Below are positions 7,512-39,875 of a stretch of 64,000 nucleotides of DNA, piece after piece. Location of the stretch: assembly GCA_022706085.1 (NCBI GenBank), contig JAKJDF010000007.1, forward strand, positions 10,474 through 74,473. The letters run 5' to 3'. Position numbers and translations under genes: made by a program. Source of the stretch: Candidatus Latescibacterota bacterium. GTDB taxonomy: Bacteria; Latescibacterota; MWCZ01. Every line of letters starts with the position of its first letter. Position 1 is the first letter of the stretch. The notes beneath the pieces were generated by a model. It was not told where the DNA came from. It made no database searches and was given only the letters and a program-made list of their open reading frames with translations.

Positions 7512-7525
7512 ACGCGGGAGCCAGG

Positions 7526-10760: not shown

Positions 10761-10910
10761 GACGAACGGTGGGTGGTCGGCGAGTTGGGGCCGCGGAGGT
10801 GGTGGAACATGAACGAATCTTCATTGTCGGTATAGCGCCTCTTCATTGTTCCTTCTTACTTTTTCCTCTCGTGATTGAGCGACCGGACTGAAGCCTTTCC
10901 GGAGGCGGGG

Positions 10911-11327
10911 ATGACCTTTGGAGCGCGCATGCTGGTTGCCGTTGTGGCGGTGTTTGCGGCGTGCGGGGTTCCGCACGCGGAACCGAACGCGGATTCCAGC
11001 CGTACTCGTCCGTGCAGCGCGCGGACCGCGTTTGCGCTCGGTTTGGTGGTGCCGGGGGGAGGGCAGTTCTACCTCGGCGACCGGGCGGGGGGGATTCAGG
11101 CCGTGATTACGGATGTGATTTTGTTTGAGGCGCTTCGGAGGAACGACGCCACGATTTCCGGGGTTGTTTTCTTCATCGGCGCCGTACACGTTGTTGAGGC
11201 GTTGTTTGCCGCGCGCGAGTGCAGACTCAGAAACGCCGCTTTGCAGCCCCGGATAACGAGTGCCTTCCCGGATCGGCGCGAAGCTCCGGTGATCGGGCTG
11301 GCGGTGGCGGTCCCGATTTCCCACTGA
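10911..11327 (+). CDS. hypothetical secreted protein / possible lipoprotein
   Basis: Start MTFGARMLVAVVAVFAACG preceded by GGAGG; signal-peptide-like N-terminus; no recognisable family. Confidence 0.3.
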   Translation: MTFGARMLVAVVAVFAACGVPHAEPNADSSRTRPCSARTAFALGLVVPGGGQFYLGDRAGGIQAVITDVILFEALRRNDATISGVVFFIGAVHVVEALFAARECRLRNAALQPRITSAFPDRREAPVIGLAVAVPISH

Positions 11328-27528: not shown

Positions 27529-28484
27529 GAGAGCGGCGGGTGACGGTTGAGCCGCTCTCGGAGACGCATTCCCGCGCGGCGGGAGAGCTTATCCGAACGG
27601 TGCTTCAAGAGGAATTCGGCGCCGCGACCGGGGCGTGCGAAGATTCGGATCTCGAGGACCTTTTCACCGCGTACGCAGGTCCGGGGAGCGCCGCGTGGGT
27701 AGCGCACTGCGACGGCGGGGTGTGCGGCGTGGCTGCTGTGCGCGAGTCCGAGAACGGCGCACTGGAACTCAAACGATTCTACGTGCGTGCTGACTACCGC
27801 GGGAGGGGTATCGGCGGCGCACTCCTGCGAGAGGTGGAGCGCCGCGCGGCAGAGGAGGGGTACCAGCAGATCGTGCTGACGACGACACATCTCATGGCGC
27901 GGGCGCAGGAGGTGTACCGGGACTTCGGGTACCAACTGGACAGCACGGAACGCAAGGGCGCGGTGACGCTTCATACGTACCGGAAGCAGCTGGCGCGGGC
28001 GGCACTCGGGGCACGAAGAGCGGCCGGACCTTTGCCGAAAACGGGCGGGGGTGAGATTGCGGTGGTGGTGGAACGCCCCCGCGGGTCATGTGAAGGGTGG
28101 CACTGGGAACGTCAGACGCACACGCTGGTTCTTACGGAGTATTACGACAGACCGGTTCCCGTGAACTACGGGCTGGCCCCGGAGTGGGTGAACCCCGCGG
28201 ACCAGGATGCACTGGACGTGATTCTGCTGGACGACCGCCGGATGCATCCGGGGGAAACGCTTGTTGCAGTTCCGGCAGGAGTGCTTCTCCGCCCGGACGG
28301 CGACGACAAGCTGCTGGCGGTTCCGGCGGGGGGCGCAGTGCGTCCTGTTGGCCCTGATGAACGGTCGCGGGCACGTGTTTCCGCGTGGTGGGACGACGCC
28401 CATCAGCCTGTCGGATGGGAAGGTGAGGAAGGCGTCGAACGCCTTTTGGCGCGATGCCTGCGGCAAGGAGCAAAGGATGGGTAA
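27492..28484 (+). CDS. GNAT N-acetyltransferase fused to inorganic pyrophosphatase domain
   Basis: N-terminal GNAT motif (LELKRFYVRADYRGRGIGGALL); C-terminal family-I pyrophosphatase motifs (VVVERPRGS..., YPVNYGLAPEW, DQDALDVILLDD). Confidence 0.65.
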   Translation: MVEAGVPLAPMVGERRVTVEPLSETHSRAAGELIRTVLQEEFGAATGACEDSDLEDLFTAYAGPGSAAWVAHCDGGVCGVAAVRESENGALELKRFYVRADYRGRGIGGALLREVERRAAEEGYQQIVLTTTHLMARAQEVYRDFGYQLDSTERKGAVTLHTYRKQLARAALGARRAAGPLPKTGGGEIAVVVERPRGSCEGWHWERQTHTLVLTEYYDRPVPVNYGLAPEWVNPADQDALDVILLDDRRMHPGETLVAVPAGVLLRPDGDDKLLAVPAGGAVRPVGPDERSRARVSAWWDDAHQPVGWEGEEGVERLLARCLRQGAKDG

Positions 28485-28674
28485 GCGGACGCCGAAACCC
28501 GAATGGTTCGTGTGCGAAACCTGCGGGAAACAGACGCGGGCATTGCGTCGTGATGTGCTGGACGAGCACTACAATGCCCTCGGGAAGACTCCTCTCTGGA
28601 ACTGCGAAGAATGCTACCAACAGAAGAGGCGGGAGCGCCTCAGTCAGCCCGACTCACCCGACCCGTCGTCCTGA
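28477..28674 (+). CDS. small zinc-ribbon protein (65 aa), tentative
   Basis: AGGAGCAAAGG ribosome-binding site then ATG; two CxxC pairs (CETC...CEEC); overlaps the annotated aroK start by 64 bp, so one of the two start calls may be wrong. Confidence 0.3.
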   Translation: MGKRTPKPEWFVCETCGKQTRALRRDVLDEHYNALGKTPLWNCEECYQQKRRERLSQPDSPDPSS

Positions 28675-29210
28675 TCGGCTTCATGGGCGCCGGTAAGACG
28701 AAGGTGGGGAAAATCGCCGCGCAGTATATCGGGTGCGATTTCGTGGACACTGACCACATCGTGGAGCGCTCCGCCGGCAAGTCTATCTCCGAGTTGTTCG
28801 CGGAGGTCGGGGAGGAGCGGTTTCGCGAGCTTGAAACGGAGGCCATCGAGTGGGCGCTGAACACGCGCGGCGGCATTATCGCGCTGGGCGGCGGCGCCGC
28901 AACGCGTGAGGAGAACTGGCAGTTGCTGCGCAGGTCAGGAGCGATGACGATCTACCTGCAGGCGTCGCCGAGAACACTGCTCGCACGGGTTGCGGACAAG
29001 GGTACGCGGCCGCTTCTGGCCGGCCTCGACCGCCCGCAGATGCTGGAAAAGATCACGTCCCTTCTGGAACAGCGCGAACCGTGGTACCTCCGGGCAGACA
29101 TTACCCTTGCCACCGATAACTCGCTTGACAAGTATGGCATGGCGGATGCACTGGTCGCGCGCCTCAAAGAAGCCGGCATCAGCGCGGCTGAATTGCACCG
29201 GACGTCATGA
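28611..29210 (+). CDS. aroK: shikimate kinase
   Basis: P-loop VVLIGFMGAGKTKVGK, core length about 170 aa plus short N-terminal extension. Confidence 0.8.
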   Translation: MLPTEEAGAPQSARLTRPVVLIGFMGAGKTKVGKIAAQYIGCDFVDTDHIVERSAGKSISELFAEVGEERFRELETEAIEWALNTRGGIIALGGGAATREENWQLLRRSGAMTIYLQASPRTLLARVADKGTRPLLAGLDRPQMLEKITSLLEQREPWYLRADITLATDNSLDKYGMADALVARLKEAGISAAELHRTS

Positions 29211-30034
29211 ACGGGCGGCACAGAACCACACTGTGGCGGGAACATGTTGCGCTCTGGCGAGACGCCTGGCGGCGGGTGGTATCACACCGCCGGCAGGTCG
29301 TGCTGATCACTTTGTTGCTGTGGGTGCCGTGGCGGTTTGTGGTTCCTCTGGTTGATCGCCAGCTCGGTTTCGGGGCATTCGCCGGATTTCCGCTGGAATG
29401 GATTGCCGACGCACTATATGACCCGCTGTACGGGGCCACCATCCTTGCGGTGCTGGCAGAGATGTACCCGATTTCCGTTCGGAGCGCCCTCCTGAGGGGT
29501 TTCTGGCTCGTTCCCCGTCTGTGGCTGATCGAGATCAAAGTAGCGATCTGGGGGCTGGCCGTGCCCTACCTGATCCTCCATCTCGGGGCGGCGACCGTGT
29601 TGACTCTGTGGCCGAGCTACGGGGCCGCCCGCGCGCTCTTCGCGGTGACGATCGTCAGCATGGCATGGGTGCTGATTGTGGTGGTTCGGTACATGCTGGC
29701 AGCCGCGGTGATGGTTGCGGAAACGCAGGGGCACACCTGGAACGGGGAGCAGGCGCCTTCCACCGGGTGGGCGCTTTCGGCGGCGCGGCAGTTGATCCAG
29801 GGGAACGCAGGGCAAGCGGTTCTCGTGATGGCCGTGGGGCAGGGAGTTATCTCGCTCATCGTGTCGCTCCTTCCTTCGGGCGATACCGTGCCGGCGCAGG
29901 TTCTAAACGCGGCGGGCATGGTGGTTACGGCGCTCTGGTGGGCGCTTTTGTGGAGCTTTTGCCAGCTCTGTCTCAACAGGGCGCGCGGGGTGACCGCACA
30001 GGAGGCAACGCATGGACGTCAGAAAGCTCGTTGA
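29207..30034 (+). CDS. hypothetical integral membrane protein
   Basis: 275 aa, multiple hydrophobic helices (VVLITLLLWVPW, IWGLAVPYLILHLGAATVL, VTALWWALLWSF); ATGA overlap with aroK stop. Confidence 0.5.
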   Translation: MNGRHRTTLWREHVALWRDAWRRVVSHRRQVVLITLLLWVPWRFVVPLVDRQLGFGAFAGFPLEWIADALYDPLYGATILAVLAEMYPISVRSALLRGFWLVPRLWLIEIKVAIWGLAVPYLILHLGAATVLTLWPSYGAARALFAVTIVSMAWVLIVVVRYMLAAAVMVAETQGHTWNGEQAPSTGWALSAARQLIQGNAGQAVLVMAVGQGVISLIVSLLPSGDTVPAQVLNAAGMVVTALWWALLWSFCQLCLNRARGVTAQEATHGRQKAR

Positions 30035-30377
30035 TCATCTCGACCGCAGCCGCATGGTGCTGTGCCACAGTGGGACGATCTATTCGCAGGCGTTGTTCGG
30101 TGAGTTACGCCCGGATGAGGTGTGCCCGGGCGTGTTCGCCTATGCGCCGGGATGGGGCGTGCTGGACCCGGGGATGACCATGGAGGCGCACGAACATCCG
30201 GTCGCTGAGTTTTACGTGTTCGCGAGCGGAAAGGGACGGATGCGGCTGGGCGACACGTGGTTCGATGTCGAGCCGAATATGTCCGTGAATATCCCACCCG
30301 GGGTGGAACATGAGCTGGCGAATGATGCCGCGTCGCCTCTCCCACTCGTGTTTGTTTCGGTCGGCCTGAGGATCTGA
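30012..30377 (+). CDS. cupin domain protein
   Basis: 121 aa, metal-binding-like HEHPVAEFYVF...G...NIPPGVEHE two-motif cupin pattern. Confidence 0.6.
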   Translation: MDVRKLVDHLDRSRMVLCHSGTIYSQALFGELRPDEVCPGVFAYAPGWGVLDPGMTMEAHEHPVAEFYVFASGKGRMRLGDTWFDVEPNMSVNIPPGVEHELANDAASPLPLVFVSVGLRI

Positions 30378-30434
30378 CGCTCGCGCCGGCTCCTTCCGGA
30401 ATGAGTCTGCGTTCCTGATTCCGCCCTTCGTCTC

Positions 30435-30463
30435 TTGACAATTCAGCCTGCTTGGAGTATCCT
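30435..30463 (+). promoter_or_regulatory. sigma70-type promoter candidate for the DUF134 operon
   Basis: TTGACA (30435-30440), 17-bp spacer, TATCCT (30458-30463), about 40 bp upstream of the DUF134 start. Confidence 0.4.
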
Positions 30464-30465
30464 CA

Positions 30466-30485
30466 TTATGAACATATGCTCATAA
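30466..30485. promoter_or_regulatory. 20-bp palindromic operator candidate
   Basis: TTATGAACATATGCTCATAA, 18/20 positions self-complementary around CATATG, immediately downstream of the -10 element and upstream of the CAGGAG ribosome-binding site. Confidence 0.35.
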
Positions 30486-30503
30486 CTCAGGAGACCACAC
30501 TGT

Positions 30504-30932
30504 ATGCCAAGACCACGGAATCCCCGGCAGGTGCGATGTATGCCGTGCACGGATTACTTCAAACCGCGGGGCATCCCGCTGCGGGCGCTGGAAGAGGTGA
30601 CGCTGGCGGTGGAAGAACTGGAAGCGTTGCGGCTGGCTGATCTGGAAGGGATGGAGCAGATGGCGGGCGCGGAGCAGATGGAGGTATCGCGCCCCACGTT
30701 TGCACGGGTGCTCGCCTCCGCGCGGAAGAAGGTGGCGGATGCGCTGGTGAACGGGAAAGCGCTCCGGATTGAAGGCGGGGTGTTCCGGATGGCGGAGGGC
30801 GTCCCGTTCTGGGGACGGCACGGACACGGGTGGGGACGGGGCCGCGGCGGAGGATGCGGGCGGCGATTCCGGGGAGGACGTGAGTTTGGCCGGGGCGAGA
30901 CGCCCCCTGAACCGATGCCTGATTCCGAATAA
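30504..30932 (+). CDS. DUF134 (UPF0251) family predicted DNA-binding protein with Gly/Arg-rich C-terminal tail
   Basis: MPRPRNPRQVRCMPCTDYFKPRGIPLRALEEVTLAVEELEALRLADLEGMEQ...VSRPTFARVLASARKKVADALVNGKALRIEGG matches the DUF134 signature; tail GHGWGRGRGGGCGRRFRGGREFGRG. Confidence 0.8.
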   Translation: MPRPRNPRQVRCMPCTDYFKPRGIPLRALEEVTLAVEELEALRLADLEGMEQMAGAEQMEVSRPTFARVLASARKKVADALVNGKALRIEGGVFRMAEGVPFWGRHGHGWGRGRGGGCGRRFRGGREFGRGETPPEPMPDSE

Positions 30933-30945
30933 GAGGTAACAGCGA

Positions 30946-31302
30946 ATGTATACGATCAATTATGATCTTTGCACACGATGCTTTGCCTGCGTGAAAGCCT
31001 GCAAGAGACCGGGGGCACTGGAAATCCGAGAGGGAAAACCGAAGATCAATTTCGTGTTGTGCACCGAGTGCGGCCTGTGCGCGGAAGCGTGTCAGCACGG
31101 GGCGATAACGAAATGGGAGGCACGCGAGGAGGATGCCCAACCGCCGGAGGTCCCGGTTGCGAGTTCGCCGCCGCCTGTTTCCGCTCCCGCTGGGAATCCG
31201 CTTTCCCGGGGGTTTGCGCGATGCGGGGCATGGATCCGTTCGGCATGTGGGCGGCGGGGCGCACCTCGAGGTTACCGGAGGGGTGGACGCTGGAGGGTTT
31301 GA
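30946..31302 (+). CDS. 2x[4Fe-4S] ferredoxin
   Basis: Two Cx2Cx2Cx3C motifs (CTRCFACVKAC, CTECGLCAEAC) in the first 55 aa; low-complexity C-terminal extension. Confidence 0.75.
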   Translation: MYTINYDLCTRCFACVKACKRPGALEIREGKPKINFVLCTECGLCAEACQHGAITKWEAREEDAQPPEVPVASSPPPVSAPAGNPLSRGFARCGAWIRSACGRRGAPRGYRRGGRWRV

Positions 31303-31353
31303 TATCCGAGGAGTGTTCTGGTTGGAAACTATTCACAGAAAGGGAAGGACGCC

Positions 31354-31710
31354 ATGAAGATCGCGGTTCCAGTAGACACGAACGAGGGCCTCAGAAGTAT
31401 CGTTGCCGGCCATTTCGGGCATGCACCGCACTATGCGTTCGTCGATGGAAAGACGAAGCAATGCGCCGTTGTTCCAAACGCGAGTTCGCACAATGGCGGG
31501 GACAAGCTGCCCCCGGAATGGTTGTTTGATGAAGGCGTGAATGTCCTCATCTGCAACGGGCTGGGCGCGCGTGCCATCGGCCTGTGCACACAACTGGGAA
31601 TCGAGGTCTATATCACGGAGGAGCAAACAGTGGCGGAGTCCATTGGCGCGTTTGAAGCGGGAATGCTGCCCAGGGCGGGTTCCGATGATGCGTGCGCTCA
31701 CAAGCATTAG
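31354..31710 (+). CDS. NifX/NafY-like protein (dinitrogenase FeMo-cofactor biosynthesis domain family)
   Basis: MKIAVPVDTNEGLRSIVAGHFGHAPHYAFVD...VNVLICNGLGARAIGLCTQLGIEVY, typical of this domain; AAGGGAAGGA ribosome-binding site. Confidence 0.75.
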   Translation: MKIAVPVDTNEGLRSIVAGHFGHAPHYAFVDGKTKQCAVVPNASSHNGGDKLPPEWLFDEGVNVLICNGLGARAIGLCTQLGIEVYITEEQTVAESIGAFEAGMLPRAGSDDACAHKH

Positions 31711-31739
31711 ATTCCACAACACGACGAAAGGTGAGACCG

Positions 31740-32270
31740 ATGAAGATCGCAGTAAGCAGTTCCGGTCAGGAGCTCGACTCGCCGGTAGATCCGCGATTCG
31801 GACGATGCACTCATTTCGTAATCGTGGACTCCGACACTGACGACTACGACGCCATTGAAAATGCAGCAAGTGAAGCGGGAAGTGGCGCGGGAATCGCGGC
31901 GGCAAGCGCACTGGCGAAGGCGGGCGCGGAGGTTGTTTTGACGGGGAACCTCGGGCCCAATGCCGCGCGCACTCTCTCCACGCTCGGCATCAAGGCGTAC
32001 CGCGCAGAGGGCGACACGGTGGGAGAATCGGTGACCGCTTTCATTGATGGGCAACGGTTCGAAATCACGTCGCCGACTGTCACCGCGAAATCGGGCCTGA
32101 ATCCGCCTGCCGCGGTATTCCCCTCTCGTCCGTTGGGCGGCAGCACTGGCGGAGGAATGGGACGCGGTATGGGCGGCGGCGGAGGTATCGGCGGGGGTGG
32201 CGGCAGAGGCGCCGGTGGAGACCGTGGTGCTGGCGGCGGCAGAGGGGCCGGTGGCGGACGCGGAAGATGA
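31740..32270 (+). CDS. NifX/NafY-like protein with Gly/Arg-rich C-terminal tail
   Basis: MKIAVSSSGQELDSPVDPRFGRCTHFVIVD...AEVVLTGNLGPNAARTLSTLGIKAY, then tail GGGMGRGMGGGGGIGGGGGRGAGGDRGAGGGRGAGGGRGR; AAAGGTGAG ribosome-binding site. Confidence 0.7.
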   Translation: MKIAVSSSGQELDSPVDPRFGRCTHFVIVDSDTDDYDAIENAASEAGSGAGIAAASALAKAGAEVVLTGNLGPNAARTLSTLGIKAYRAEGDTVGESVTAFIDGQRFEITSPTVTAKSGLNPPAAVFPSRPLGGSTGGGMGRGMGGGGGIGGGGGRGAGGDRGAGGGRGAGGGRGR

Positions 32271-33121
32271 TAGTAAGCGTTGCAAGCGGGAAAGGCGGAA
32301 CCGGCAAGACCACGGTTGCGGTTGCGCTGGCGCAGGTAGCTCCGAACAGCGCCTACGTGGATTGCGACACCGAAGCGCCTAACGGGCACCTGTTTTTGCG
32401 CCCGAATATTTCACACCGCAAACCGGTCAATCGCAAAGTAGCCTCGATCAATGTGAACATGTGCACGTGGTGCGGTGAATGCATGGAAAAATGCGCCTAC
32501 CACGCGATCGTGATCGCACACGCGACGAAGAAGGCCGTCGTATTCGAGGACCTGTGCATGGGATGCGGCGTCTGTTCACTCGTGTGCCCGGCTCGCGCGA
32601 TTACAGAGGAAGACCGGCACGCGGGAATCGTTTCGAACGGCCACAGTGGCAGGATTCGCACGCGGGAGGGCCGAATGGCGGTTGAGGCTCCTCACGCGCA
32701 CCCTGTGCTGAATGAGACGTTGAAGGAGCTTCCCGATGCGCCTCACACGATTCTCGACGCGGAGCCGGGTGTCACGGGGCGTGTAGTAACAACGGTGAGG
32801 GCAAGCGATGTGTGTGTTCTAGTCACTGAGCCAACACCGTTCGGGCTGCACGATCTGGAGCTGGCCGTGACGATGACGCAGCATGTCGGGGTTCCGGTCG
32901 GCGTCATCATCAATCGTTCAACGATAGGCGACAACGCCGTGCGCGACTTTTGTCGGGTTCGGACCATACCCGTTCTGCTGGAGATTCCGTTTGACCGACG
33001 CATTGCAGCGGGGTACGCGGTGGGAAAGACGCTTGTTGAGATTCTGCCGGACATGAAAAGCCAATTTGCGGAGGTTCTCAGGCATATCGAGCGGATCGTC
33101 ACTGAGAGGGGGCGATCATGA
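32267..33121 (+). CDS. MinD/ParA-type P-loop ATPase with embedded 4Fe-4S ferredoxin domain
   Basis: Deviant Walker A SGKGGTGKTT; ferredoxin insert CTWCGECMEKC...CMGCGVCSLVCP; ATGA overlap with upstream gene. Confidence 0.8.
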   Translation: MIVSVASGKGGTGKTTVAVALAQVAPNSAYVDCDTEAPNGHLFLRPNISHRKPVNRKVASINVNMCTWCGECMEKCAYHAIVIAHATKKAVVFEDLCMGCGVCSLVCPARAITEEDRHAGIVSNGHSGRIRTREGRMAVEAPHAHPVLNETLKELPDAPHTILDAEPGVTGRVVTTVRASDVCVLVTEPTPFGLHDLELAVTMTQHVGVPVGVIINRSTIGDNAVRDFCRVRTIPVLLEIPFDRRIAAGYAVGKTLVEILPDMKSQFAEVLRHIERIVTERGRS

Positions 33122-34035
33122 CTCCGCAGATTACGGTGGTAAGCGGGAAAGGCGGTACCGGAAAGACAACGCTTACTGCTCTGTGGGGCAGCATGGCAGA
33201 CAGGCCGGTGCTTGTAGACGCGGATGTGGACGCGTCGAACCTTCCGCTGGCGTACCCCCACGAGACGCGGGAGCAGCATCCGTTCGTTGGACGGGATGTG
33301 GCCGTAGTGAACGAGCCGTTGTGCAAGAATTGCGGTGTGTGCGCGAGGGCGTGCAGGTTTGATGCGTTTGTGCAGGTTGAAGGCCAGTTCCGGGTGGACC
33401 CGCTTGCGTGCGAAGGATGCACGCTGTGCACGCTGGTGTGCCCGCTCGATGCGATCACCATGAAACCGCACGTCTCCGGAACGTGGTCTGTGAGCGAAAC
33501 CGGGTTCGGACCTCTCGTCCATGCTCAACTGGGAATTGCGGAGGGGAATTCCGGCAAACTGGTGACGCAGGTGCGCCGGGCGGGGGAGAAGCTGGCAGAG
33601 GAGCGGGTGGCGGCAGTGATTCTGGTTGACGGCCCTCCGGGGATCGGCTGCCAGACAACGGCGGCGATGGCGGGAGCCTCTCTGGTGGTGCTGGTAACTG
33701 AACCGTCGGCGTCAGGGCGGCACGACATGGAGCGGTTGCTTTCGGTAACGAATCGGCTGGGTGTTCCGGCGCTTGTTGTTCTCAACAAGGTTGACCTTGC
33801 ACCCGCTGAAGAGGCGTTGATTCGGAACGCGGTATCGCGCATGGGCGCGGAGTATGCGGAGTATATAGGGTCCGTCCCGTTCATTCAGGAGGTCCCCGGG
33901 CTGCTTGCTTCGGGAACCCTGCTCAGCGAGTGCCCGCGCCCGCTGAGGGAAGCGGCGGAAGGACTGTGGAAGGTAATTCTGGAACGCGCACTGGTGGCGG
34001 AGCGCGTCCAGCAGGGAGAACCTGCGCACGGATAA
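33118..34035 (+). CDS. MinD/ParA-type P-loop ATPase with embedded 4Fe-4S ferredoxin domain (paralogue)
   Basis: SGKGGTGKTT; CKNCGVCARAC...CEGCTLCTLVCP; ATGA overlap with upstream paralogue. Confidence 0.8.
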   Translation: MTPQITVVSGKGGTGKTTLTALWGSMADRPVLVDADVDASNLPLAYPHETREQHPFVGRDVAVVNEPLCKNCGVCARACRFDAFVQVEGQFRVDPLACEGCTLCTLVCPLDAITMKPHVSGTWSVSETGFGPLVHAQLGIAEGNSGKLVTQVRRAGEKLAEERVAAVILVDGPPGIGCQTTAAMAGASLVVLVTEPSASGRHDMERLLSVTNRLGVPALVVLNKVDLAPAEEALIRNAVSRMGAEYAEYIGSVPFIQEVPGLLASGTLLSECPRPLREAAEGLWKVILERALVAERVQQGEPAHG

Positions 34036-34061
34036 CGCACCGGAAAGGATGGGTAAGGAAA

Positions 34062-34247
34062 ATGCCTCTGGGTGACGGAAAGGGGCCCCCGGAAGGGACT
34101 GGCCCGATGACGGGGAGGAAGCGCCTCGCGGCAAGCTGCCCATCGAAGAAACCTGAAAAAGCAAGCGGGTGGTCTCTTCTAGGACTTATCGTTGTGGCGT
34201 TACTCGCGCTTGGGGTGTGGTTTGTCTCGCACAACACAGACGATTGA
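34062..34247 (+). CDS. small membrane-anchored protein with DUF5320-like N-terminus (61 aa), tentative
   Basis: AAGGAAA ribosome-binding site then ATG; MPLGDGKGPPEGTGPMTGRK shares the GxGPMTGR motif with the downstream DUF5320-like protein; C-terminal TM helix LLGLIVVALLALGVWFV. Confidence 0.4.
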   Translation: MPLGDGKGPPEGTGPMTGRKRLAASCPSKKPEKASGWSLLGLIVVALLALGVWFVSHNTDD

Positions 34248-34593
34248 GATTGCACCACGAGAAGGAGATCCACATGCCAGGAGTACGGGGAATGAGGCCG
34301 ATGGGAAGGCGGTGTACTGCGCTTGGTCCCGGTCGGGGCGGATACGCGGTGCGGCCGACCTCCTTTGCGGGGGGATATCGCCTCATTCGTTGCGGCCGAG
34401 GATGCCGTGGGCGGGGGTTCCGCGAGCGGTGGTCCCATCGAGCCTTTTTTGCGCCCGGATTTGCGTGGAGACAGCCCTTCGCAGCGCCTGTTGGCGCGCC
34501 GTGGAGGGTTTAGTTCATAATCGCGCCCAGGGTGATGGTCAGCATCATAAGGGCGCATGTATATCAACACACTTGCGATAAGGAGGCAGAACA

Positions 34594-34920
34594 ATGCCAG
34601 CAGGAGATGGCACTGGTCCCATGGGAATGGGACCGATGACGGGTCGGCGCGCGGGATTTTGCGCCGGATTCGGCGTTCCGGGATACATGAACCCGGGAGC
34701 GGGTTTCTGGTGCGGCGGTGGCCGCGGGCGGGGATTCCGCAATCGGTACTGGGCAACAGGAATACCCGGATGGGCGTGGTGGCAGGGCGTTCCGGGAACC
34801 GTCCCCGCGCCGATGACCGAAGAGGCCGAAGCGGAAGCACTGCGTCAGCAGGCGGCGGCTCTCCAGCGGTCGCTGGATGCGATCAACCAGAGGCTTGCGA
34901 GCCTGACCTCAGAGAAATAG
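34594..34920 (+). CDS. DUF5320-like small protein (108 aa)
   Basis: MPAGDGTGPMGMGPMTGRRAGFCAGFG..., Gly/Arg/Trp-rich middle, C-terminal coiled coil (EAEAEALRQQAAALQRSLDAINQRLASL); GGAGG ribosome-binding site. Confidence 0.55.
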   Translation: MPAGDGTGPMGMGPMTGRRAGFCAGFGVPGYMNPGAGFWCGGGRGRGFRNRYWATGIPGWAWWQGVPGTVPAPMTEEAEAEALRQQAAALQRSLDAINQRLASLTSEK

Positions 34921-35011
34921 GCTTCCGGAAAAGTCCGCCTGTGCGGAGCCGGGATGCTCCCAAGGGGCAGGACAGCGGGGGAGTCCGCAAGGACTCTCCC
35001 GCTGTGTGCGC

Positions 35012-36142
35012 TTACGCCGGCCAGTGATCCCAGAATCTTTTCCTGCCACGTTCGCTGACGTAACCGGCGAGAGCTCTTCGGGGGCATCCCTCATCGAGGA
35101 GACGCTTCACTTCTTTCGCCGCGCGAATGAACGCGTGGATTTTCGGGATGTTCTCCCCATTGCATGAATTTGCTTCCAGAATCGTGAATACTCTGGAGGC
35201 CCCGTCCGCAGCCGACTGAAAGACGAAATCCTCCACGTCCTGCGCGTCCAGCACCGTTAGATGGATTCCCCCGAGGCGCCAGCCAAAGGGTACGCGGCAC
35301 TCGTCCGCGATGATACGGGGGTTCAGGTGGTGGGAGATGGACGGGTCGTAGTAAGACAGCCCGATCTGTTCCAGGAAGGGCAGGTGAGCAGGTTTCAGGT
35401 CTTCCACGTGCGCATGAACATCACCCGTGGTGCGGCGGCGGAAGAGATCGCTCCAGAACGGGACGACGAATTCATTCCAGAGCCGTGGGGGAATCATTGC
35501 GGCGATGTCGTCGCACAGGCTTGCGCCGCTTTCGTTGAACACCGTTGCGCCGGTAACGCCGAGGCGGAACTGCTCGAACGCGAGGATACTGTCGTTGATC
35601 CGGCCCAGGAGCTCCTTTGTTTTCGCCGGTTCCTCCATCACGTCGACGAAAAAGGCATCGCCCCGCAATTCGTAGGCTGTGGTGCAGGGACCTTCCACTC
35701 CGAAGGAGAAGCCGACCGATTCGCCGGGAAACGCCCGCATCATCTGTTCGCGGAAGTCCAGATAGAACGGGGCCATCCCTCTGCTGGCGAAATCGACCGG
35801 CCGCGCGAGAGCTTCCATCGCTTCCGCCATCGAGTGCGCGAAGCAGTGCTCGACCGCGACCTCGCCTCCTTCGGGGAAAAACAATCTCGCGCCCAGGGCG
35901 CTGGCGTGGCCGTAACTTACTGGCGGCGTGGCGGGAGAGGGCAAGGAAACGTCGTGCGGGTCGAACAGCTGCCTTTGCTTTTCCCGTCCGACGCGATACG
36001 CCTCGATACAGGCTTCTGGTTTGAGAAAGAAATCGCGGAACGGTACCCCGGACAGCGCAAGGCAGGAGAGATAGCTACCTGACACGCTCCATGAGAACTC
36101 CTTCGGATTGCGCGCGGATGTGTAGTCGGGTTTGCGGTACAT
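35012..36142 (-). CDS. uroporphyrinogen decarboxylase (URO-D) family protein
   Basis: Start MYRKPDYTSARNPKEF preceded by AGGAGG; about 376 aa; third URO-D-like paralogue in the window. Confidence 0.7.
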   Translation of the reverse strand: MYRKPDYTSARNPKEFSWSVSGSYLSCLALSGVPFRDFFLKPEACIEAYRVGREKQRQLFDPHDVSLPSPATPPVSYGHASALGARLFFPEGGEVAVEHCFAHSMAEAMEALARPVDFASRGMAPFYLDFREQMMRAFPGESVGFSFGVEGPCTTAYELRGDAFFVDVMEEPAKTKELLGRINDSILAFEQFRLGVTGATVFNESGASLCDDIAAMIPPRLWNEFVVPFWSDLFRRRTTGDVHAHVEDLKPAHLPFLEQIGLSYYDPSISHHLNPRIIADECRVPFGWRLGGIHLTVLDAQDVEDFVFQSAADGASRVFTILEANSCNGENIPKIHAFIRAAKEVKRLLDEGCPRRALAGYVSERGRKRFWDHWPA

Positions 36143-36389
36143 GATGGCCTCCTGATACCAATGAATCGGGAAAAGTGCCCACGGGAGCAAGCTGGCGCCT
36201 GAACGGAGTGTCACGAGGGAACTTGGTGCCGGGGCCGCGTCGCGCTATTGTACTTGACGAATCCGGGAAACTGCTATCCCGGTGTCAGTGACTGTGTTCC
36301 CACAGGTTGCGTCCTCCTGAATGCCCTCATGCAGGGCGGCGAGCGTCTTCCTCAGGGTGTTTTTCGACTCCACGGAAAGGAATCCGAGC

Positions 36390-39300
36390 ATGAGTTGCCC
36401 GAAACTACGCGCACTGGCAAGAAACGTTCTGGTGGCTCTGGCAGCCGCCTTTTCTTTTTCACCGGCGGTTGCGGCCGGAATCGAGCAGATCTGGGTAGCC
36501 GACGCCCACATGGTGATGGAAGGGGCGCCGATGGTGGTTGATCTGGACGGAGATGGCGACGCGGAAATCCTGACCGCGGCGTACGAGCACATCATCGTGG
36601 TGGACGGTTCCGGCTCGGAACTCTGGAGGTACGACGGGCGGGGACGATACTCGACGTGTCCCGCGATTCTCGAACGCGTGGGAGACACCCCGCTCATCTT
36701 CGCCGGGGACAACACGGGGGAATTCACCTGCCTCGACGGGCGGGGCAACGTGGTGTGGAAGAGGGATCTGCCTTCGATCTTCTGCGCGTCGCCGGCGGTA
36801 GCCGATCTGGATGCAAACGGCACGTTCGAGGTGGTTCAGGGGGACAAAACCGGCAAAATTCACGTCATGGATGCTCTGTCGGGTGCTGTTGTGTGGACGG
36901 CACAACTTGACGGGGAGTGCGCCAGCCCGGCCGTCGGCGATTTGAATTCCGACGGGAAGCCGGAAATATGCATTGCCACCGGTGCCGGGAAGGTATACGC
37001 CCTCAGCGCCACGGGCGTGGTGCTCTGGAGCGTTGATCTCGGTTCGCCTTCGCCGGACTGGTCGACCAGTTCGCCGGTGATTTTCACGGGGTCCGATGGG
37101 AACGAGTACGTAGCGGCCGGTGCGCGTTCGGGGCGCTTTGTCTGCCTCAACGCGCGTGGTGAAGTGGGCTGGGAACGCAACCTGCGGGGCGCCATCGCCT
37201 CAACGATTTCGGTGAGCGACTTCGATTCCGACGGGATCGCCGACATCTTTGTCGTGACCCAGCTTGGCGTGCTGTACCGTTTTGACGAAACGGGCAACGT
37301 GATCTGGGATATTGACACGCAGGGGAGGAGCCTTGCATCGGGGGCAATTGTTGACGTGGACGGTGATTCTGCGCTCGAGTACGTGCTGTGCACCCAGAAC
37401 GGGAATCTGATGGTATTCAACCAGGCGGGAGAGATCACGTTCAACCATCAATTCCCGAACCGCACCATCAATGTGACGGCGGCGTTCGGTGACATCGTGA
37501 AGGCCCGGCCCGGTCTGGAGTTCGCCATCACGGGCGGCGAATCGGGGAAGGTGTACTGTTTTGGCACCGCGGCGCCTTTGAGTACTGCCGCCCCGTGGCG
37601 CACGTATCGGGGAGACAACCGGCTGACGGGTTGCTCGTCGGGTTCCAGTGCCGGAGCGGGTGCCCGAATGGCACCGGTGAATCTCGCGTGGGATCGTCTT
37701 CTCACGGGGGAGGCGGTTGTGTTCAGGGTTTCCCTTCCGGAGCCGGCGGGTCTGGCGAAGGCAGAGGCGACGTGCACGAGTCCGGACGGTTCGCGTCAGG
37801 CTTCGGTAGGCGCCGTGGCCGGTCAACGGGGTGTGCTTCAGATGCCCGTGGTGATCACGGCGCCGGGGGTGTACCGGTTCGAGTGGGCCGTCAGGGACGG
37901 CTCAGGGGAGAGGCTTGCGGGTGGTTCGCGCGAGTTGACACTGCGACCGTATCAGAACGATCGGGCGTTCGTGCAGAGAGCCTTGCGCGAGTTGCGTTCG
38001 GCACTGGGTCAGGCTCCGGTGGCGCGGACGGAACGTGGAATCCGCGGGGTGTTGCAGAGGGAGATGCGTGAGATCGAGCGCGAAGCGGTGGAACTGGCGG
38101 GGATTCAGGATGCAGTTCCCGGGGCGGCGCGTGAACTTGCTGAAGAAGCGAATGCCCGGACGATTGCGCTGAACGAGCGAACCAAACGCGCTCAGGCATT
38201 GACCCGGGTTGCGCGTGCGTTGCCGTCGGGCAGCGCCTCGCCGCGGGTGATTGCGTTCGAAGGGACGACGTGGGAAAACCGTGAAATCAATCGCCAGCTT
38301 CCCGCGGAGGTAGCGATCCCGCTGAGGATATCCCGGCGCGCGGTGACCGGGGAACATGAGCCGGTGTCTATCAAGTTGTGGAACGTGACGCTGGACACGG
38401 TGCGCGTGGAGGTTCGGGCAGAGCCCGGCAATGCGGGGATTCGGGTGACGCCGATGGAAGCGAAGGCGGTTCCCACGAACCTGAACACGATCGGATGGGA
38501 TGCGCTGCCGAGACTTGGAAACCGCCCGGTGGCGGTTCCGCCGCTGGAGACGAGCGAGGTGTGGCTCGACATTGATCTGGCCAACACGCCGCCGGGCAGG
38601 CACACGGTGACAGCGTTTTTCGGGGCAGGCAGCGCGGCCGCCCGCGCCATCGTCACGCTGGATGTGCTGCCGTTTGAAATGGCAGGGTATCGCGACCTGC
38701 GGTTGTGCAACTGGGCAGTGTATAACGGCGATGCCGTGCAGGACCTGCTTGCCCACGGGAACACGGTATTCATCACGGGAATGCCTCACGCCACCATCAG
38801 CCCCGAGAATCCGGGGCGAGTTTCCGTTGATTTCACCCGGCTCGATGCGTTCGTTGAGCCATTCCGTGGGCACGATGTGTTCCTGTTGCTGAGCGGTGTG
38901 CCGAGCCTCGGTGTTCCGGTGAGCAGCGACACGTTCGTCGTCCGGTTCGGCGATTACATCCGTCAGGTGCTCGGTCGCCTTGCACAGCGCGGGATACCGG
39001 AGACGAATGTGGCGCTGTATCCGTATGACGAACCGGGAGGCAGCGGCTGGAACACGGTGAATAGTTATATCGAGTTCGCGCGGCAGGCCTTGAAGGCGCA
39101 TCCCGGGCTCCTGTTCTACGTGAACGGCGGGGGCGATCTTCCCATGTTCCAGGCGTTCAACGAAGTGGCGGGGATCTGGTGCCCCGGCTACTACATGCTG
39201 CCGGACAGCTCCGCCGAGATGAACTTCATCCGAGCAAGCGGGAAGACGCTGTGGTCGTACGACTGCGGAATCGGGTATGCACGGCCGATTGGCTGGCACA

Positions 39301-39743
39301 CGAAGACGATCAACGTTGCCGGGCAGTACCGCATGTCGCCGGTATTCACGGTTGCCTTCGGCGCGACGGGGCTGGGGTACTGGTGTTACAACCACGGGCC
39401 ATCCATGTGGGGTGTCGTGGAGGCAGAGTTTCCGCTCGTGTACGTCAACCCTGACACCACTCACACTGCTTCGCGGAGGTGGGAGGCAGTCCGTGAAGGG
39501 ATCGAAGACGCCCGAATCATGCTGGCCTTGCGAGAGAAGCTTTCGGATGAGCGCCTGAATGAGGCGGCGAAGCAGAAAATCCGTCACCTGCTCGAAGTGA
39601 CGGCGCCTGATTTCGCCCGCCACTCGCTGGAAGAGGTTCGGCTGGGCGTGGCGCGCTACGCTCTCGATGCGACGAACAATGACGACACGGTGGGTGCATT
39701 CCGGCAGGAACTGCTGGACTGCGTTGCCGCAACGGTCGAGTAG
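36390..39743 (+). CDS. large secreted protein: N-terminal FG-GAP/PQQ-like beta-propeller repeats plus C-terminal glycoside-hydrolase-like domain
   Basis: Signal peptide (MSCPKLRALARNVLVALAAAFSFSPAVAAG); repeated DLDGDGDAEIL / DLDANGTFEVV / DLNSDGKPEI / DFDSDGIADIF / DVDGDSALEYV motifs; about 450-aa C-terminal domain of TIM-barrel-like composition; 1117 aa. Confidence 0.7.
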   Translation: MSCPKLRALARNVLVALAAAFSFSPAVAAGIEQIWVADAHMVMEGAPMVVDLDGDGDAEILTAAYEHIIVVDGSGSELWRYDGRGRYSTCPAILERVGDTPLIFAGDNTGEFTCLDGRGNVVWKRDLPSIFCASPAVADLDANGTFEVVQGDKTGKIHVMDALSGAVVWTAQLDGECASPAVGDLNSDGKPEICIATGAGKVYALSATGVVLWSVDLGSPSPDWSTSSPVIFTGSDGNEYVAAGARSGRFVCLNARGEVGWERNLRGAIASTISVSDFDSDGIADIFVVTQLGVLYRFDETGNVIWDIDTQGRSLASGAIVDVDGDSALEYVLCTQNGNLMVFNQAGEITFNHQFPNRTINVTAAFGDIVKARPGLEFAITGGESGKVYCFGTAAPLSTAAPWRTYRGDNRLTGCSSGSSAGAGARMAPVNLAWDRLLTGEAVVFRVSLPEPAGLAKAEATCTSPDGSRQASVGAVAGQRGVLQMPVVITAPGVYRFEWAVRDGSGERLAGGSRELTLRPYQNDRAFVQRALRELRSALGQAPVARTERGIRGVLQREMREIEREAVELAGIQDAVPGAARELAEEANARTIALNERTKRAQALTRVARALPSGSASPRVIAFEGTTWENREINRQLPAEVAIPLRISRRAVTGEHEPVSIKLWNVTLDTVRVEVRAEPGNAGIRVTPMEAKAVPTNLNTIGWDALPRLGNRPVAVPPLETSEVWLDIDLANTPPGRHTVTAFFGAGSAAARAIVTLDVLPFEMAGYRDLRLCNWAVYNGDAVQDLLAHGNTVFITGMPHATISPENPGRVSVDFTRLDAFVEPFRGHDVFLLLSGVPSLGVPVSSDTFVVRFGDYIRQVLGRLAQRGIPETNVALYPYDEPGGSGWNTVNSYIEFARQALKAHPGLLFYVNGGGDLPMFQAFNEVAGIWCPGYYMLPDSSAEMNFIRASGKTLWSYDCGIGYARPIGWHTKTINVAGQYRMSPVFTVAFGATGLGYWCYNHGPSMWGVVEAEFPLVYVNPDTTHTASRRWEAVREGIEDARIMLALREKLSDERLNEAAKQKIRHLLEVTAPDFARHSLEEVRLGVARYALDATNNDDTVGAFRQELLDCVAATVE

Positions 39744-39766
39744 CCTGCACCGATTCGGGGTGCAAG

Positions 39767-39805
39767 AGGCCGGCAGGGGTGTTGCGCCCCCTGCCGGCCT
39801 TTTTT
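39767..39805 (+). terminator. Rho-independent terminator
   Basis: Perfect 12-bp GC-rich stem GGCCGGCAGGGG / CCCCTGCCGGCC with 8-nt loop, followed by TTTTTTT. Confidence 0.75.
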
Positions 39806-39875
39806 TGTGCCGCGTGGAGTACGTTCGTCTTTCCGCCGTGTTGTTCTTCAGTGAGCTATTGCGAAAGGAACCGGA

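Follow-up and report, generated by a model that had tools for sequence, protein, structure and literature searches.

Positions 34062-34247 of the window, by which we mean the whole analysed stretch of 64,000 nt from a Candidatus Latescibacterota genome (contig JAKJDF010000007.1), almost certainly encode a real protein that is under selection. Judged from sequence comparison, this microprotein is clearly a paralogue of the 5' end of the nearby DUF5320 gene that arose by duplication, and its C-terminal segment is very probably a membrane helix. It is a rare variant within the known DUF5320 family and not a new kind of system, since the DUF5320 tag sits near the end of an orp-like operon. All features of the window located by coordinates below lie on the forward (+) strand.

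The reading frame extends from an ATG at 34062 to a TGA ending at 34247, and the 61-aa product obtained by direct reading and from the ORF list is MPLGDGKGPPEGTGPMTGRKRLAASCPSKKPEKASGWSLLGLIVVALLALGVWFVSHNTDD, in agreement with the 61-codon ORF that an earlier sequence-only reading of this DNA had proposed. The same reading had credited the gene with a good ribosome-binding site. Its purine-rich leader (34040-34061, 26 nt past the stop of the upstream ATPase gene, by direct reading) does contain the Shine-Dalgarno-like elements AAGGA and GGA, 2 and 12 nt upstream of the ATG, respectively, but the match is moderate and the spacing suboptimal; the corresponding genes of the related loci L003 and L001 carry GGAGG or GAGG at 6-9 nt from the start. 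Because 109 ORFs of at least 40 aa occur within 12 kb of this approximately 62% G+C DNA, ORF size alone is no evidence for a gene here. Contrary to the assumption that the ORF is too short for most annotation pipelines, at least six NCBI records already make the exact product public as "hypothetical protein" (OQB39042.1 (BWY06_01809), HOF60979.1, HOS64631.1, HPK73701.1, HOT36451.1 and HPU84740.1). An Rfam scan of 33800-35100 matched no RNA family and the region is therefore not an RNA element.

About 25 distinct homologues of 60-91 aa were identified in Latescibacterota, Elusimicrobia and unassigned metagenome contigs, the homologue searches returning identities of 47-98% at lengths of 60-75 aa. 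The motif MPLGDG.GPP.G.GP.TG is common to all of them and is followed by a Cys in nearly all; beyond it the homologues have a variable linker and then a C-terminal helix. An alignment of 10 homologues contained 19 invariant columns, C26 among them. Over codons 1-26, pS reached 0.6-0.9 versus a pN of 0.05-0.15, so that synonymous sites are near saturation with the peptide unchanged. The full-length dN/dS of 0.13-0.21 (versus L011, L013, L014, L002 and L001) is comparable to that of the neighbouring DUF5320 gene (0.10-0.24) and ATPase gene (0.09-0.17) and indicates purifying selection, and no frameshift was present in the microprotein gene across the approximately 25 sequences. The sequence-only reading had staked the gene on its conservation in related genomes, and conservation is what these homologues and their dN/dS values show. 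The subfamily is nevertheless rare: clustering at 50% identity leaves 8 representatives among 1.84 billion proteins. A viral origin was rejected, as a search of viral_contigs returned no relative and PHROG no match for the microprotein, DUF5320, P0017 or P0016 (protein P0013 had one marginal match, E 0.0018). The sole ORFs adjoining a weak tail-protein match were motif-only ones of 38 aa.

The canonical DUF5320 gene of the window is the last of the operon (34594-34920, 108 aa; PF17253, 101 bits over the full model); its product is annotated as "DUF5320 domain-containing protein" and the gene downstream is convergent. This protein consists of the N-terminal module, a Gly/Arg/aromatic middle region and a C-terminal coiled-coil helix, with weak coiled-coil Pfam matches at residues 76-107. 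The parallel between the two N-termini that had been noticed by eye proved sound: BLASTP aligned the microprotein and the DUF5320 protein with 14/20 identities (E 2e-6 for the pair). When the N-terminus was aligned with the family, as had been suggested, residues 1-21 of the microprotein matched positions 1-20 of Pfam DUF5320 (PF17253; E 0.0013), with a score of 20.3 bits that falls below the gathering score of 27 bits; no NCBIfam model matched the microprotein. Both proteins share the motif M-P-x-G-D-x-x-G-P-x(1,2)-G-x-G-P-x-T-G-R followed by a conserved Cys, and the microprotein also carries the MPxGDGTGPxGxGPMTGR-plus-Cys pattern, C26 being invariant among the aligned microproteins and C23 among the DUF5320 proteins.

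In contrast, the microprotein covers only about 20 of the 99 model positions. The Gly/Arg/aromatic middle region (GRGRGFRNRYW type) is found in all canonical members and in no microprotein, and the C-terminal helix of the microprotein is uniformly hydrophobic, not a coiled coil. Moreover, the microproteins have a signature of their own: residue 3 is Leu, a Pro-Pro pair is inserted, and [KR]-R-[LF] follows the motif. The proposed replacement of the coiled-coil C-terminus by a transmembrane helix is incomplete, since the Gly/Arg/aromatic middle is gone as well; the microprotein has lost this region together with the coiled coil and has gained the predicted membrane helix. DUF5320 itself is a large family, with more than 7,700 clusters in a database search. 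A search of solved structures gave nothing beyond chance for DUF5320 or for the motif profile, and a literature search on DUF5320 returned two mentions, both in passing, one of them of an RG-rich motif in DUF134 and DUF5320 proteins of Methanosarcina mazei. A Met-rich Cu(I) site, as could be read into the MGMGPM run of DUF5320, was rejected because the microprotein does not keep the Met residues.

Three segments can be distinguished within the microprotein. Codons 1-26 (34062-34139) encode the DUF5320-type N-terminal module MPLGDGKGPPEGTGPMTGRKR plus Cys26, as delimited by alignment, Pfam and pS/pN; codons 27-35 (34140-34166) a polar or basic linker whose length and sequence differ among homologues; and codons 36-59 (34167-34238) the predicted single transmembrane helix, after which an acidic tail of 2-5 residues follows. 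The single transmembrane helix claimed from the sequence is supported, as a hydrophobic helix, by hydropathy and by modelling. The best 19-mer, residues 38-56, has a mean Kyte-Doolittle value of 2.48, and AlphaFold2 predicted one helix at residues 36-59 (pLDDT 87 at residues 41-50) with residues 1-35 lacking secondary structure (pLDDT approximately 57 in the N-terminal module). Every homologue of the transmembrane type has a 19-mer with a Kyte-Doolittle value of 1.7-3.2 near the C-terminus and a tail of 4-15 residues. The N-terminus is polar and Gly/Pro-rich, with no N-terminal signal peptide. In these respects, namely one hydrophobic helix lying in the final 25 residues, a length below 70 aa, a very short C-terminal tail and the absence of an N-terminal signal sequence, the microprotein resembles the tail-anchored small bacterial membrane proteins, which are a structural class and not a homologous family, its insertion being predicted from sequence and model. 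The charges flanking the helix in the window protein (KKPEK before, HNTDD after) favour an N-in orientation; some homologues have short basic C-terminal tails, which makes their topology ambiguous.

Module architectures were catalogued from the relatives' loci by regular expression and Pfam. At L017, a hybrid protein joins a DUF5320-type N-terminus to a microprotein-type tail. L009 (8574-8987) encodes a fusion of DUF5320 (35.5 bits) with Fer4, a 2x[4Fe-4S] ferredoxin, and L034 (751-1059) a fusion of DUF5320 (31.6 bits) with Rubrerythrin (28.4 bits), while P0013 combines two module repeats with a membrane helix. Since it heads coiled-coil, membrane-helix, ferredoxin and rubrerythrin-like proteins, the N-terminal module is portable. 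Its Met-Pro at the N-terminus is invariant and only two members lack Asp5. The transmembrane, coiled-coil, ferredoxin-fused and rubrerythrin-fused forms retain the Cys that follows the motif; P0013, P0017 and the L029/L030/L034-467 proteins have the motif but not this Cys. As the module is of low complexity (Gly/Pro), its likeness to the Gly-rich tails found in the operon could be partly compositional. An encapsulin cargo tag, considered in view of the ferredoxin and rubrerythrin fusions, was rejected because the literature match concerned DUF1345, not DUF134, and no locus contains a shell gene.

In most loci the microprotein gene directly precedes a canonical DUF5320 gene. The gene order ATPase, microprotein, DUF5320 is shared by L001-L004, L010-L014, L016-L018 and L020; the sequences of L007 and L015 end before the DUF5320 gene is reached. 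In the Elusimicrobia loci L009 and L033 the order is NifX-like, microprotein, DUF5320, and in L006 a NifX-like gene is followed by the microprotein. Like DUF5320, the microprotein keeps the company of ferredoxin, NifX-like and MinD-ferredoxin ATPase genes, as observed in the window, L001, L002, L007, L010-L018, L020 and L009/L033. Canonical DUF5320 has the same gene setting in L041, where Fur adjoins the DUF5320-orp-like cluster. The solo homologues L005, L008, L023, L024 and L037 have no ATPase or DUF5320 gene within 3-6 kb. Because several homologues stand alone in this way, the function cannot strictly depend on an adjacent partner gene.

The host operon consists of genes for DUF134, a ferredoxin, two NifX-like proteins, two MinD-type ATPases with ferredoxin inserts, the microprotein and DUF5320. 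A sigma-70-like promoter match lies upstream (TTGACA-17-TATCCT, 10/12; 30435-30463); although it is the only such site in 30000-35300, shuffled sequences give approximately 0.8 sites, so that this promoter evidence is weak. The first gene encodes a DUF134 (UPF0251) HTH protein with a Gly/Arg/Cys tail (30504-30932; Pfam, 81 bits) and weak Pfam similarity to sigma-70 region 4 and ECF-like HTH domains. It is followed by a 2x[4Fe-4S] ferredoxin with an Arg/Gly-rich C-terminal tail (30946-31302; Pfam) and by the first NifX-like (Nitro_FeMo-Co) protein (31354-31710; Pfam; PDB 1T3V, 1O13, MTH1175). The second NifX-like protein (31740-32270; Nitro_FeMo-Co, 81 bits) is closest to the orange protein, its best PDB match being the ORP 2WFB (E 6.2e-22), and ends in a C-terminal Gly/Arg tail, GGGMGRGMGGGGGIGGGGGRGAGGDRGAGGGRGAGGGRGR, that is kept in L001, L002, L014 and L020. 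Both ATPases are MinD/CbiA-type and Orp3/Orp4-like, and they are mutually about 29-31% identical. One has a ferredoxin insert (32267-33121; Pfam CbiA/ParA, Fer4/Fer4_21); the other, a P-loop ATPase with a 2x[4Fe-4S] insert (33118-34035; Pfam CbiA, Fer4, Fer4_21), is encoded directly upstream of the microprotein and its PDB matches are MinD and ferredoxin domains. Terminator-like matches inside the genes were at chance level only.

Orp-type clusters of anaerobes have been proposed to act in cell division, in the handling of Fe-S or Mo/Cu clusters, or in thioferrate storage. The predicted products of the host operon match the core make-up of the Desulfovibrio orp cluster, in which the orange protein is accompanied by the MinD-like Orp3 and Orp4 with two [4Fe-4S] motifs each (PMC6345978, where Orp8 is also described). 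As in Desulfovibrio vulgaris Hildenborough, the window encodes an orange-protein homologue (2WFB, E 6e-22) together with a pair of paralogous ATPases of the MinD type, both of which contain two [4Fe-4S] ferredoxin motifs. Orp3 and Orp4 end in a C-terminal amphipathic helix that was likened by its authors to the membrane-binding helix of MinD (PMC6345978). Furthermore, a sigma-54 PAS activator is located directly upstream of the microprotein-DUF5320 pair in L025, and the orp regulator OrpR is of this type (PMC8359166). The window operon differs in that it begins with DUF134 and a sigma-70-like promoter match. A Mrp-NifX fusion (Mrp/NBP35-type Orp9/MrpORP) and a sigma-54 activator were both absent from 28000-40000. 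The Orp literature covered names no membrane-anchored microprotein as an Orp component and does not assign Orp5 or Orp7 to DUF5320, and no named Desulfovibrio member was among the best 120 matches of the DUF5320 search.

A second likeness is to IssA, the thioferrate storage protein of Pyrococcus furiosus, described in PMC5524996 as an IPR003731 domain with a cationic glycine-rich tail proposed to bind anionic thioferrate. By sequence alone, the second NifX-like protein has the architecture of IssA and the uncharacterised "IssX" clade, with the cationic, glycine-rich, unstructured tail GGGMGRGMGGGGG...GRGAGGGRGR after its IPR003731 domain. The middle region of DUF5320 has the same Gly/Arg/aromatic chemistry by which the IssA tail is proposed to bind thioferrate (PMC5524996), whereas the microprotein has no such tail. 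A term search of the IssA paper turned up neither operon partners nor a DUF5320-type module.

On this basis we give about an even chance to a reading in which the microprotein serves as a tail-anchored copy of the DUF5320 module that docks ORP-type machinery at the membrane. With its N-terminal module facing the cytoplasm, the microprotein would present a short linear element for docking, in which Cys26 may provide a ligand; the dimer of soluble DUF5320 and the iron proteins fused to the module would use this element as well. If the module is such an element, the microprotein would offer a membrane-fixed copy of the docking site, and might either keep some of the ORP-type Fe-S machinery at the membrane or rival soluble DUF5320 for access to it. 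The likeliest partners would be the MinD-type ATPases encoded alongside it or the NifX/ORP-like proteins. That the different forms share one docking-module mechanism is a tentative proposal that we place somewhat below even chances, and the MinD-type ATPases as the specific partner of the module are a rather doubtful choice.

MinE, ParB, McdB and FliM/FliY engage ParA/MinD-family ATPases through short N-terminal peptides, and these would be the closest mechanistic analogy. The likeness is one of principle only and consists of a short, disordered, conserved N-terminus with a conserved Arg. In addition, the module gene adjoins MinD-family ATPase genes and the module rides on different scaffolds, and the layout of DUF5320 recalls that of McdB, a disordered N-terminus plus a coiled coil. 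However, these peptides have no sequence similarity to the N-terminal module, and the ATPases of the window contain Fe-S domains and might have no positioning role at all.

Instead of docking a partner, the module might itself be a metal or Fe-S ligand site, which would make the microprotein a membrane-bound carrier or sensor. Two copies held in the membrane would contribute the free N-terminal Pro (after removal of Met1), Asp5 and the Cys as ligands for iron, an Fe-S cluster or a thiometallate, and the bound species would be handed to or from ORP/IssA-like proteins. The invariant Met-Pro, the near-invariant Asp5 and the retention of the Cys across fusion types are consistent with this, as are the fusion partners of the module, which are iron proteins. 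By homology, the proteins of the operon bind Fe-S clusters or thiometallates (PMC6345978; PMC5524996), and PMC6345978 cites a report (its reference 23) that a small Cys-containing protein of the ORP operon, which may or may not belong to DUF5320, binds [2Fe-2S]. With one Cys per chain, however, a cluster would need oligomerisation of the microprotein; neither a His nor a second Cys is conserved as a further classic ligand, and P0013, P0017 and the L029-type proteins do without the Cys. We therefore regard a ligand site as unlikely, if worth keeping in mind.

A regulatory decoy appears distinctly improbable. Here a soluble partner, for instance the DUF134 HTH protein or DUF5320, would be captured by the membrane-fixed module and kept from its site of action, in the manner of single-pass anti-sigma factors, and operon output or complex assembly would be tuned in this way. 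Such a role would suit the weak likeness of DUF134 to sigma-70 region 4 and ECF-like HTH domains, the encoding of a small single-pass protein in the operon of DUF134, and the one presumed binding epitope that the microprotein and soluble DUF5320 have in common. Yet the microprotein has no similarity to anti-sigma domains, it is present in loci without DUF134 (L009, L025 and L006), and DUF134 neither carries nor obviously recognises the motif.

A third DUF5320 paralogue lies between the two genes: a 79-codon ORF at 34274-34513 with an AAGGAG site of its own, which did not figure in the earlier account of the locus. At the DNA level it aligns to the DUF5320 gene over the ribosome-binding site and the first approximately 240 nt, and has lost 15 nt within the motif. 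With a dN/dS of 0.86-0.90, a 1-nt frameshift in L011, L012 and L015, and P2Q plus a deletion of the ribosome-binding site in L014 and L016, this middle ORF is, on the DNA alignment, a decaying relic in this clade; it had no Pfam match and its product is absent from a collection of 15 billion proteins. Intact middle paralogues occur in L017, L019 and L021, that of L017 with its own membrane helix. The view that the operon ends in a soluble and a membrane-tethered version of one module stands in its core, but the paralogues are three, not two.

The relic shows what a tandem copy of the DUF5320 5' end without any function would look like, and it could be supposed that the microprotein ORF too has stayed open by chance in G+C-rich DNA. 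Chance ORFs are indeed abundant here and the locus is prone to duplication, as L017 illustrates. This explanation is nevertheless very improbable for the microprotein, whose full-length dN/dS of 0.13-0.21 contrasts with approximately 0.9 for the relic, whose architecture is kept in Elusimicrobia and in solo loci, and whose frame is intact in all of the approximately 25 sequences; at identities of 45-65%, these homologues cannot be duplicate assemblies of a single genome. A secreted or processed peptide (a RiPP-like precursor or signal-anchored export) instead of a cytoplasm-facing tail anchor would fit the small size and the conserved, leader-like N-terminus with its variable remainder but is hardly credible, given that the hydrophobic segment is C-terminal and not N-terminal, that the conserved part is common to cytoplasmic coiled-coil, ferredoxin and rubrerythrin-like proteins, and that no modification enzyme, peptidase or exporter is conserved beside the microprotein in the loci compared.

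Returning to the microprotein as a membrane docking copy, the portability of the first approximately 20 residues, together with a membrane copy that is under selection, suggests a short linear motif that has a defined partner and is connected to the membrane. A broader and improbable extension is that this module is a general address tag of anaerobe-specific Fe-S/thiometallate handling by ORP/IssA-type machinery. DUF5320 scaffold, ferredoxins, rubrerythrin-like proteins and membrane anchor would then be recruited to one assembly, which the Gly/Arg-tailed ORP/IssA-like, ferredoxin and DUF134 proteins would join. If this were true, the microprotein would be what fixes to the cytoplasmic membrane a body that stores or traffics iron-sulfur species. 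Peptide 1-26, which includes R19 and C26, is a concrete target for studies of the ORP complex or of IssA-like proteins, and DUF5320, a large "domain of unknown function", gains a testable hypothesis through the portability of its module and the selected membrane copy.

The microprotein gene starts with ATG at 34062 on the plus strand and terminates with TGA at 34247, encoding the 61-aa product MPLGDGKGPPEGTGPMTGRKRLAASCPSKKPEKASGWSLLGLIVVALLALGVWFVSHNTDD, as proposed in the sequence-only reading. It begins 26 nt past the stop codon of the upstream ATPase gene, behind a purine-rich leader. Its Shine-Dalgarno sequence, previously described as good, is only moderate, with AAGGA 2 nt and GGA 12 nt 5' of the ATG; relatives carry GGAGG or GAGG 6-9 nt from the start. 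The suggested parallel between its N-terminus and that of the 108-aa DUF5320 protein encoded downstream (34594-34920, plus strand) was borne out by 14 identities in 20 residues (BLASTP E 2e-6). A single C-terminal membrane helix is likewise predicted: mean Kyte-Doolittle hydropathy reaches 2.48 at residues 38-56, and the AlphaFold2 model, computed from a 10-sequence alignment, contains one helix at 36-59 (pLDDT 87 at 41-50) and leaves residues 1-35 without secondary structure.

A 61-codon open frame is by itself no evidence in this DNA, 12 kb of which hold 109 ORFs of 40 aa or more. A word-indexed protein search returned the exact microprotein and nine homologues of 60-68 aa with 47-81% identity, and genome and metagenome scans added 29 further loci. 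A profile scan detected eight microprotein-type proteins in 1.84 billion representatives, making this membrane-helix subfamily rare; the DUF5320 family comprises at least 7,753 clusters. Nineteen alignment columns are invariant (M1-P10, G12, G14-R19, R21 and C26), the linker is variable, and the C-terminal segment is hydrophobic in all homologues. Over codons 1-26, the window differs from L001, L002, L005, L006 and L008 (loci in other genomes or metagenomes, as are all L numbers below) at 60-90% of synonymous and 5-15% of non-synonymous sites. Full-length dN/dS of the microprotein was 0.13-0.21, close to the values of DUF5320 (0.10-0.24) and of the upstream ATPase (0.09-0.17). The sequence-only reading had made its proposal depend on conservation in related genomes, and such conservation was found; together with the codon-level pattern, it argues that the gene is translated and under selection. 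A 305-codon ORF on the minus strand (33923-34840) covers the microprotein gene, the ORF following it and part of the DUF5320 gene. Its Pro/Arg/Ser-rich composition is typical of G+C-rich antisense frames, and because the plus-strand genes show codon-level selection it is almost certainly spurious.

The Pfam DUF5320 model (PF17253) matched the microprotein at model positions 1-20 (E 0.0013) with 20.3 bits, short of the 27-bit threshold; with 101 bits, the 108-aa protein qualifies as a full DUF5320. The microprotein fails three of five DUF5320 features, namely the score threshold, the Gly/Arg middle and the coiled coil. Rather than a family member, it is a derived variant with the ~20-residue N-terminal module alone. 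It has no NCBIfam model, name or paper of its own, and no solved structure matched DUF5320 or the motif profile beyond chance. Wrongly expected to be too short for most annotation pipelines, the ORF appears under the label "hypothetical protein" in the Candidatus Latescibacteria/Latescibacterota MAG records OQB39042.1 (BWY06_01809, ADurb.Bin168), HOF60979.1, HOS64631.1, HPK73701.1, HOT36451.1 and HPU84740.1.

Between the microprotein and DUF5320 genes lies a 79-codon ORF (34274-34513, plus strand) with its own strong AAGGAG site. Its DNA aligns to the DUF5320 ribosome site and first ~240 nt, with a 15-nt deletion within the motif. It evolves neutrally in the window clade (dN/dS 0.86-0.90), is frameshifted in L011, L012 and L015, and in L014 and L016 lacks Pro2 as well as some of the ribosome site. 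Its product has no Pfam match, is absent from the protein collection and was never called as a gene. The ORF is a decaying relic that arose as a partial tandem copy of the 5' end of DUF5320 and has since diverged. Intact middle paralogues occur in L019 (80 aa, DUF5320 54.8 bits), L021/L022 (69 aa) and L017 (87 aa, a DUF5320 half with its own predicted membrane helix). Moreover, L017 carries four tandem module genes in 1.4 kb (342-1722): microprotein, a hybrid with DUF5320-type N-terminus and microprotein-type membrane tail, the 87-aa half and a canonical DUF5320. The relic, the intact paralogues and the hybrid indicate that the locus evolves as its 5' module is recurrently duplicated in tandem and recombined. 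Between the window and L013 or L014, synonymous divergence of DUF5320 (pS 0.57) is far above that of its immediate neighbours (microprotein 0.24-0.26, relic 0.16, ATPase 0.32), which suggests recombination or replacement of the DUF5320 gene alone.

The host operon, entirely on the plus strand, starts with a DUF134 HTH protein (30504-30932), followed by a 2x[4Fe-4S] ferredoxin (30946-31302), a NifX-like protein (31354), a second NifX-like protein (31740-32270), two MinD/CbiA ATPases with inserted ferredoxin domains (32267 and 33118), the microprotein, the relic and DUF5320, after which a convergent gene follows. Among solved structures, the Desulfovibrio gigas orange protein (ORP) 2WFB comes closest to the second NifX-like protein (E 6e-22). 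The Desulfovibrio orp cluster encodes Orp3, Orp4, the orange protein Orp8, Orp5 and Mrp-type Orp9; Orp3 and Orp4 are paralogues that both contain two [4Fe-4S] ferredoxin motifs and, according to the authors, a MinD-like C-terminal amphipathic helix; OrpR, a sigma-54 activator, controls the cluster, for which a putative cell-division link is described (PMC6345978, PMC3897727, PMC8359166). The orange-protein homologue and MinD/ferredoxin ATPases match this description and give the window operon the orp core; it has no Orp9 or OrpR, however, and is headed by DUF134. Gly/Arg-rich tails, some with Cys, end the second NifX-like protein, the ferredoxin and DUF134 and are kept in L001, L002, L014 and L020. 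They resemble both the Gly/Arg/aromatic middle of DUF5320 and the cationic glycine-rich tail with which Pyrococcus IssA is proposed to bind thioferrate (PMC5524996); the second NifX-like protein, ending in such a tail, shares the IssA architecture. A G-quadruplex paper had reported RG motifs in M. mazei DUF134 and DUF5320 proteins (PMC7565180). Downstream of the operon, at a distance of about 5 kb, an 816-aa ORF (39876-42326, plus strand) seems by eye to carry two N-terminal heavy-metal-binding motifs (GMSCA.C) as well as CPC and DKTGT motifs and would then be a copper-type P1B ATPase.

ATPase, microprotein and DUF5320 genes are adjacent in L001-L004, L010-L014, L016-L018 and L020; L007 and L015 end beyond the microprotein and relic, ahead of the DUF5320 gene. 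In Elusimicrobia (L009, L033) a NifX-like gene precedes the microprotein gene, and DUF5320, two NifX-like genes, the module-ferredoxin fusion and the ATPase follow it in that order. In L006 (789-1481) a divergent NifX-like gene is inserted directly upstream of the microprotein; it is a homologue (E 1e-10) of the NifX-like gene that precedes the microprotein in Elusimicrobia. In L025 (231-1685 and 4675-6084) the microprotein-DUF5320 pair is downstream of a sigma-54 PAS activator of OrpR-like architecture; peptidase-like, rubrerythrin-like and Ni-superoxide-dismutase-like genes (the last read by eye from HCDGPCGVYDP) are found in the vicinity. The microprotein occurs solo in L005, L008, L023, L024 and L037, and SGL, creatininase, cupin and sulfatase genes neighbour it in the solo lineage. 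In L041, from a genome of 3.36 Mb, the gene for a Fur-family regulator lies directly 5' of DUF5320, ferredoxin, two NifX-like and two MinD-ferredoxin ATPase genes (6469-11290), which hints at iron-responsive control of DUF5320/orp-like clusters.

Furthermore, the module precedes a 2x[4Fe-4S] ferredoxin, to which a Gly/Arg linker joins it (L009 8574-8987, DUF5320 35.5 bits plus Fer4; L033 6531-6944), and a rubrerythrin-like domain (L034 751-1059, DUF5320 31.6 bits, Rubrerythrin 28.4 bits), both parts of each fusion passing Pfam thresholds. Two repeats of it are combined with a predicted membrane helix in the protein P0013, and it occurs in 90-aa proteins of unassigned fold (L029, L030, L034) and as 38-aa module-only peptides. 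These architectures indicate that the module is portable. The 38-aa peptides (MPLRDKKGPPEGTGPMTGRKKGKC...; L026 5001-5117, L027 1017-1133, L028 58-174, L031 710-826) lie beside a weak PHROG tail/virion-protein match, and P0017, a 91-aa module-plus-helix protein (L039 2556-2831), is encoded in a dense array of small genes without known function, all on one strand. Both may be phage contexts; a search of viral_contigs found no relatives.

The microprotein is thus a selected small protein that combines a disordered N-terminal module with a Cys and a single hydrophobic helix, and its gene lies with those of ORP-type Fe-S proteins. It would be tail-anchored, with the module probably facing the cytoplasm because the module also heads cytoplasmic proteins. 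The module may be a short linear docking or ligand element with several users and a common partner in the ORP-type machinery, of which the microprotein would provide a membrane-fixed copy. By analogy with the N-terminal peptides of MinE, ParB, McdB and FliM/FliY, the most economical candidate partner is the adjacent MinD-family ATPases. NifX/ORP-like proteins are an alternative, supported by adjacency in L006 and L009, and the solo loci show that the microprotein gene does not require a partner gene next to it. A rival reading takes Pro1 (Met removed), Asp5 and Cys26 as a putative metal or cluster site. The microprotein represents a new architectural variant in a known, uncharacterised family, within an operon type that has been partly studied.
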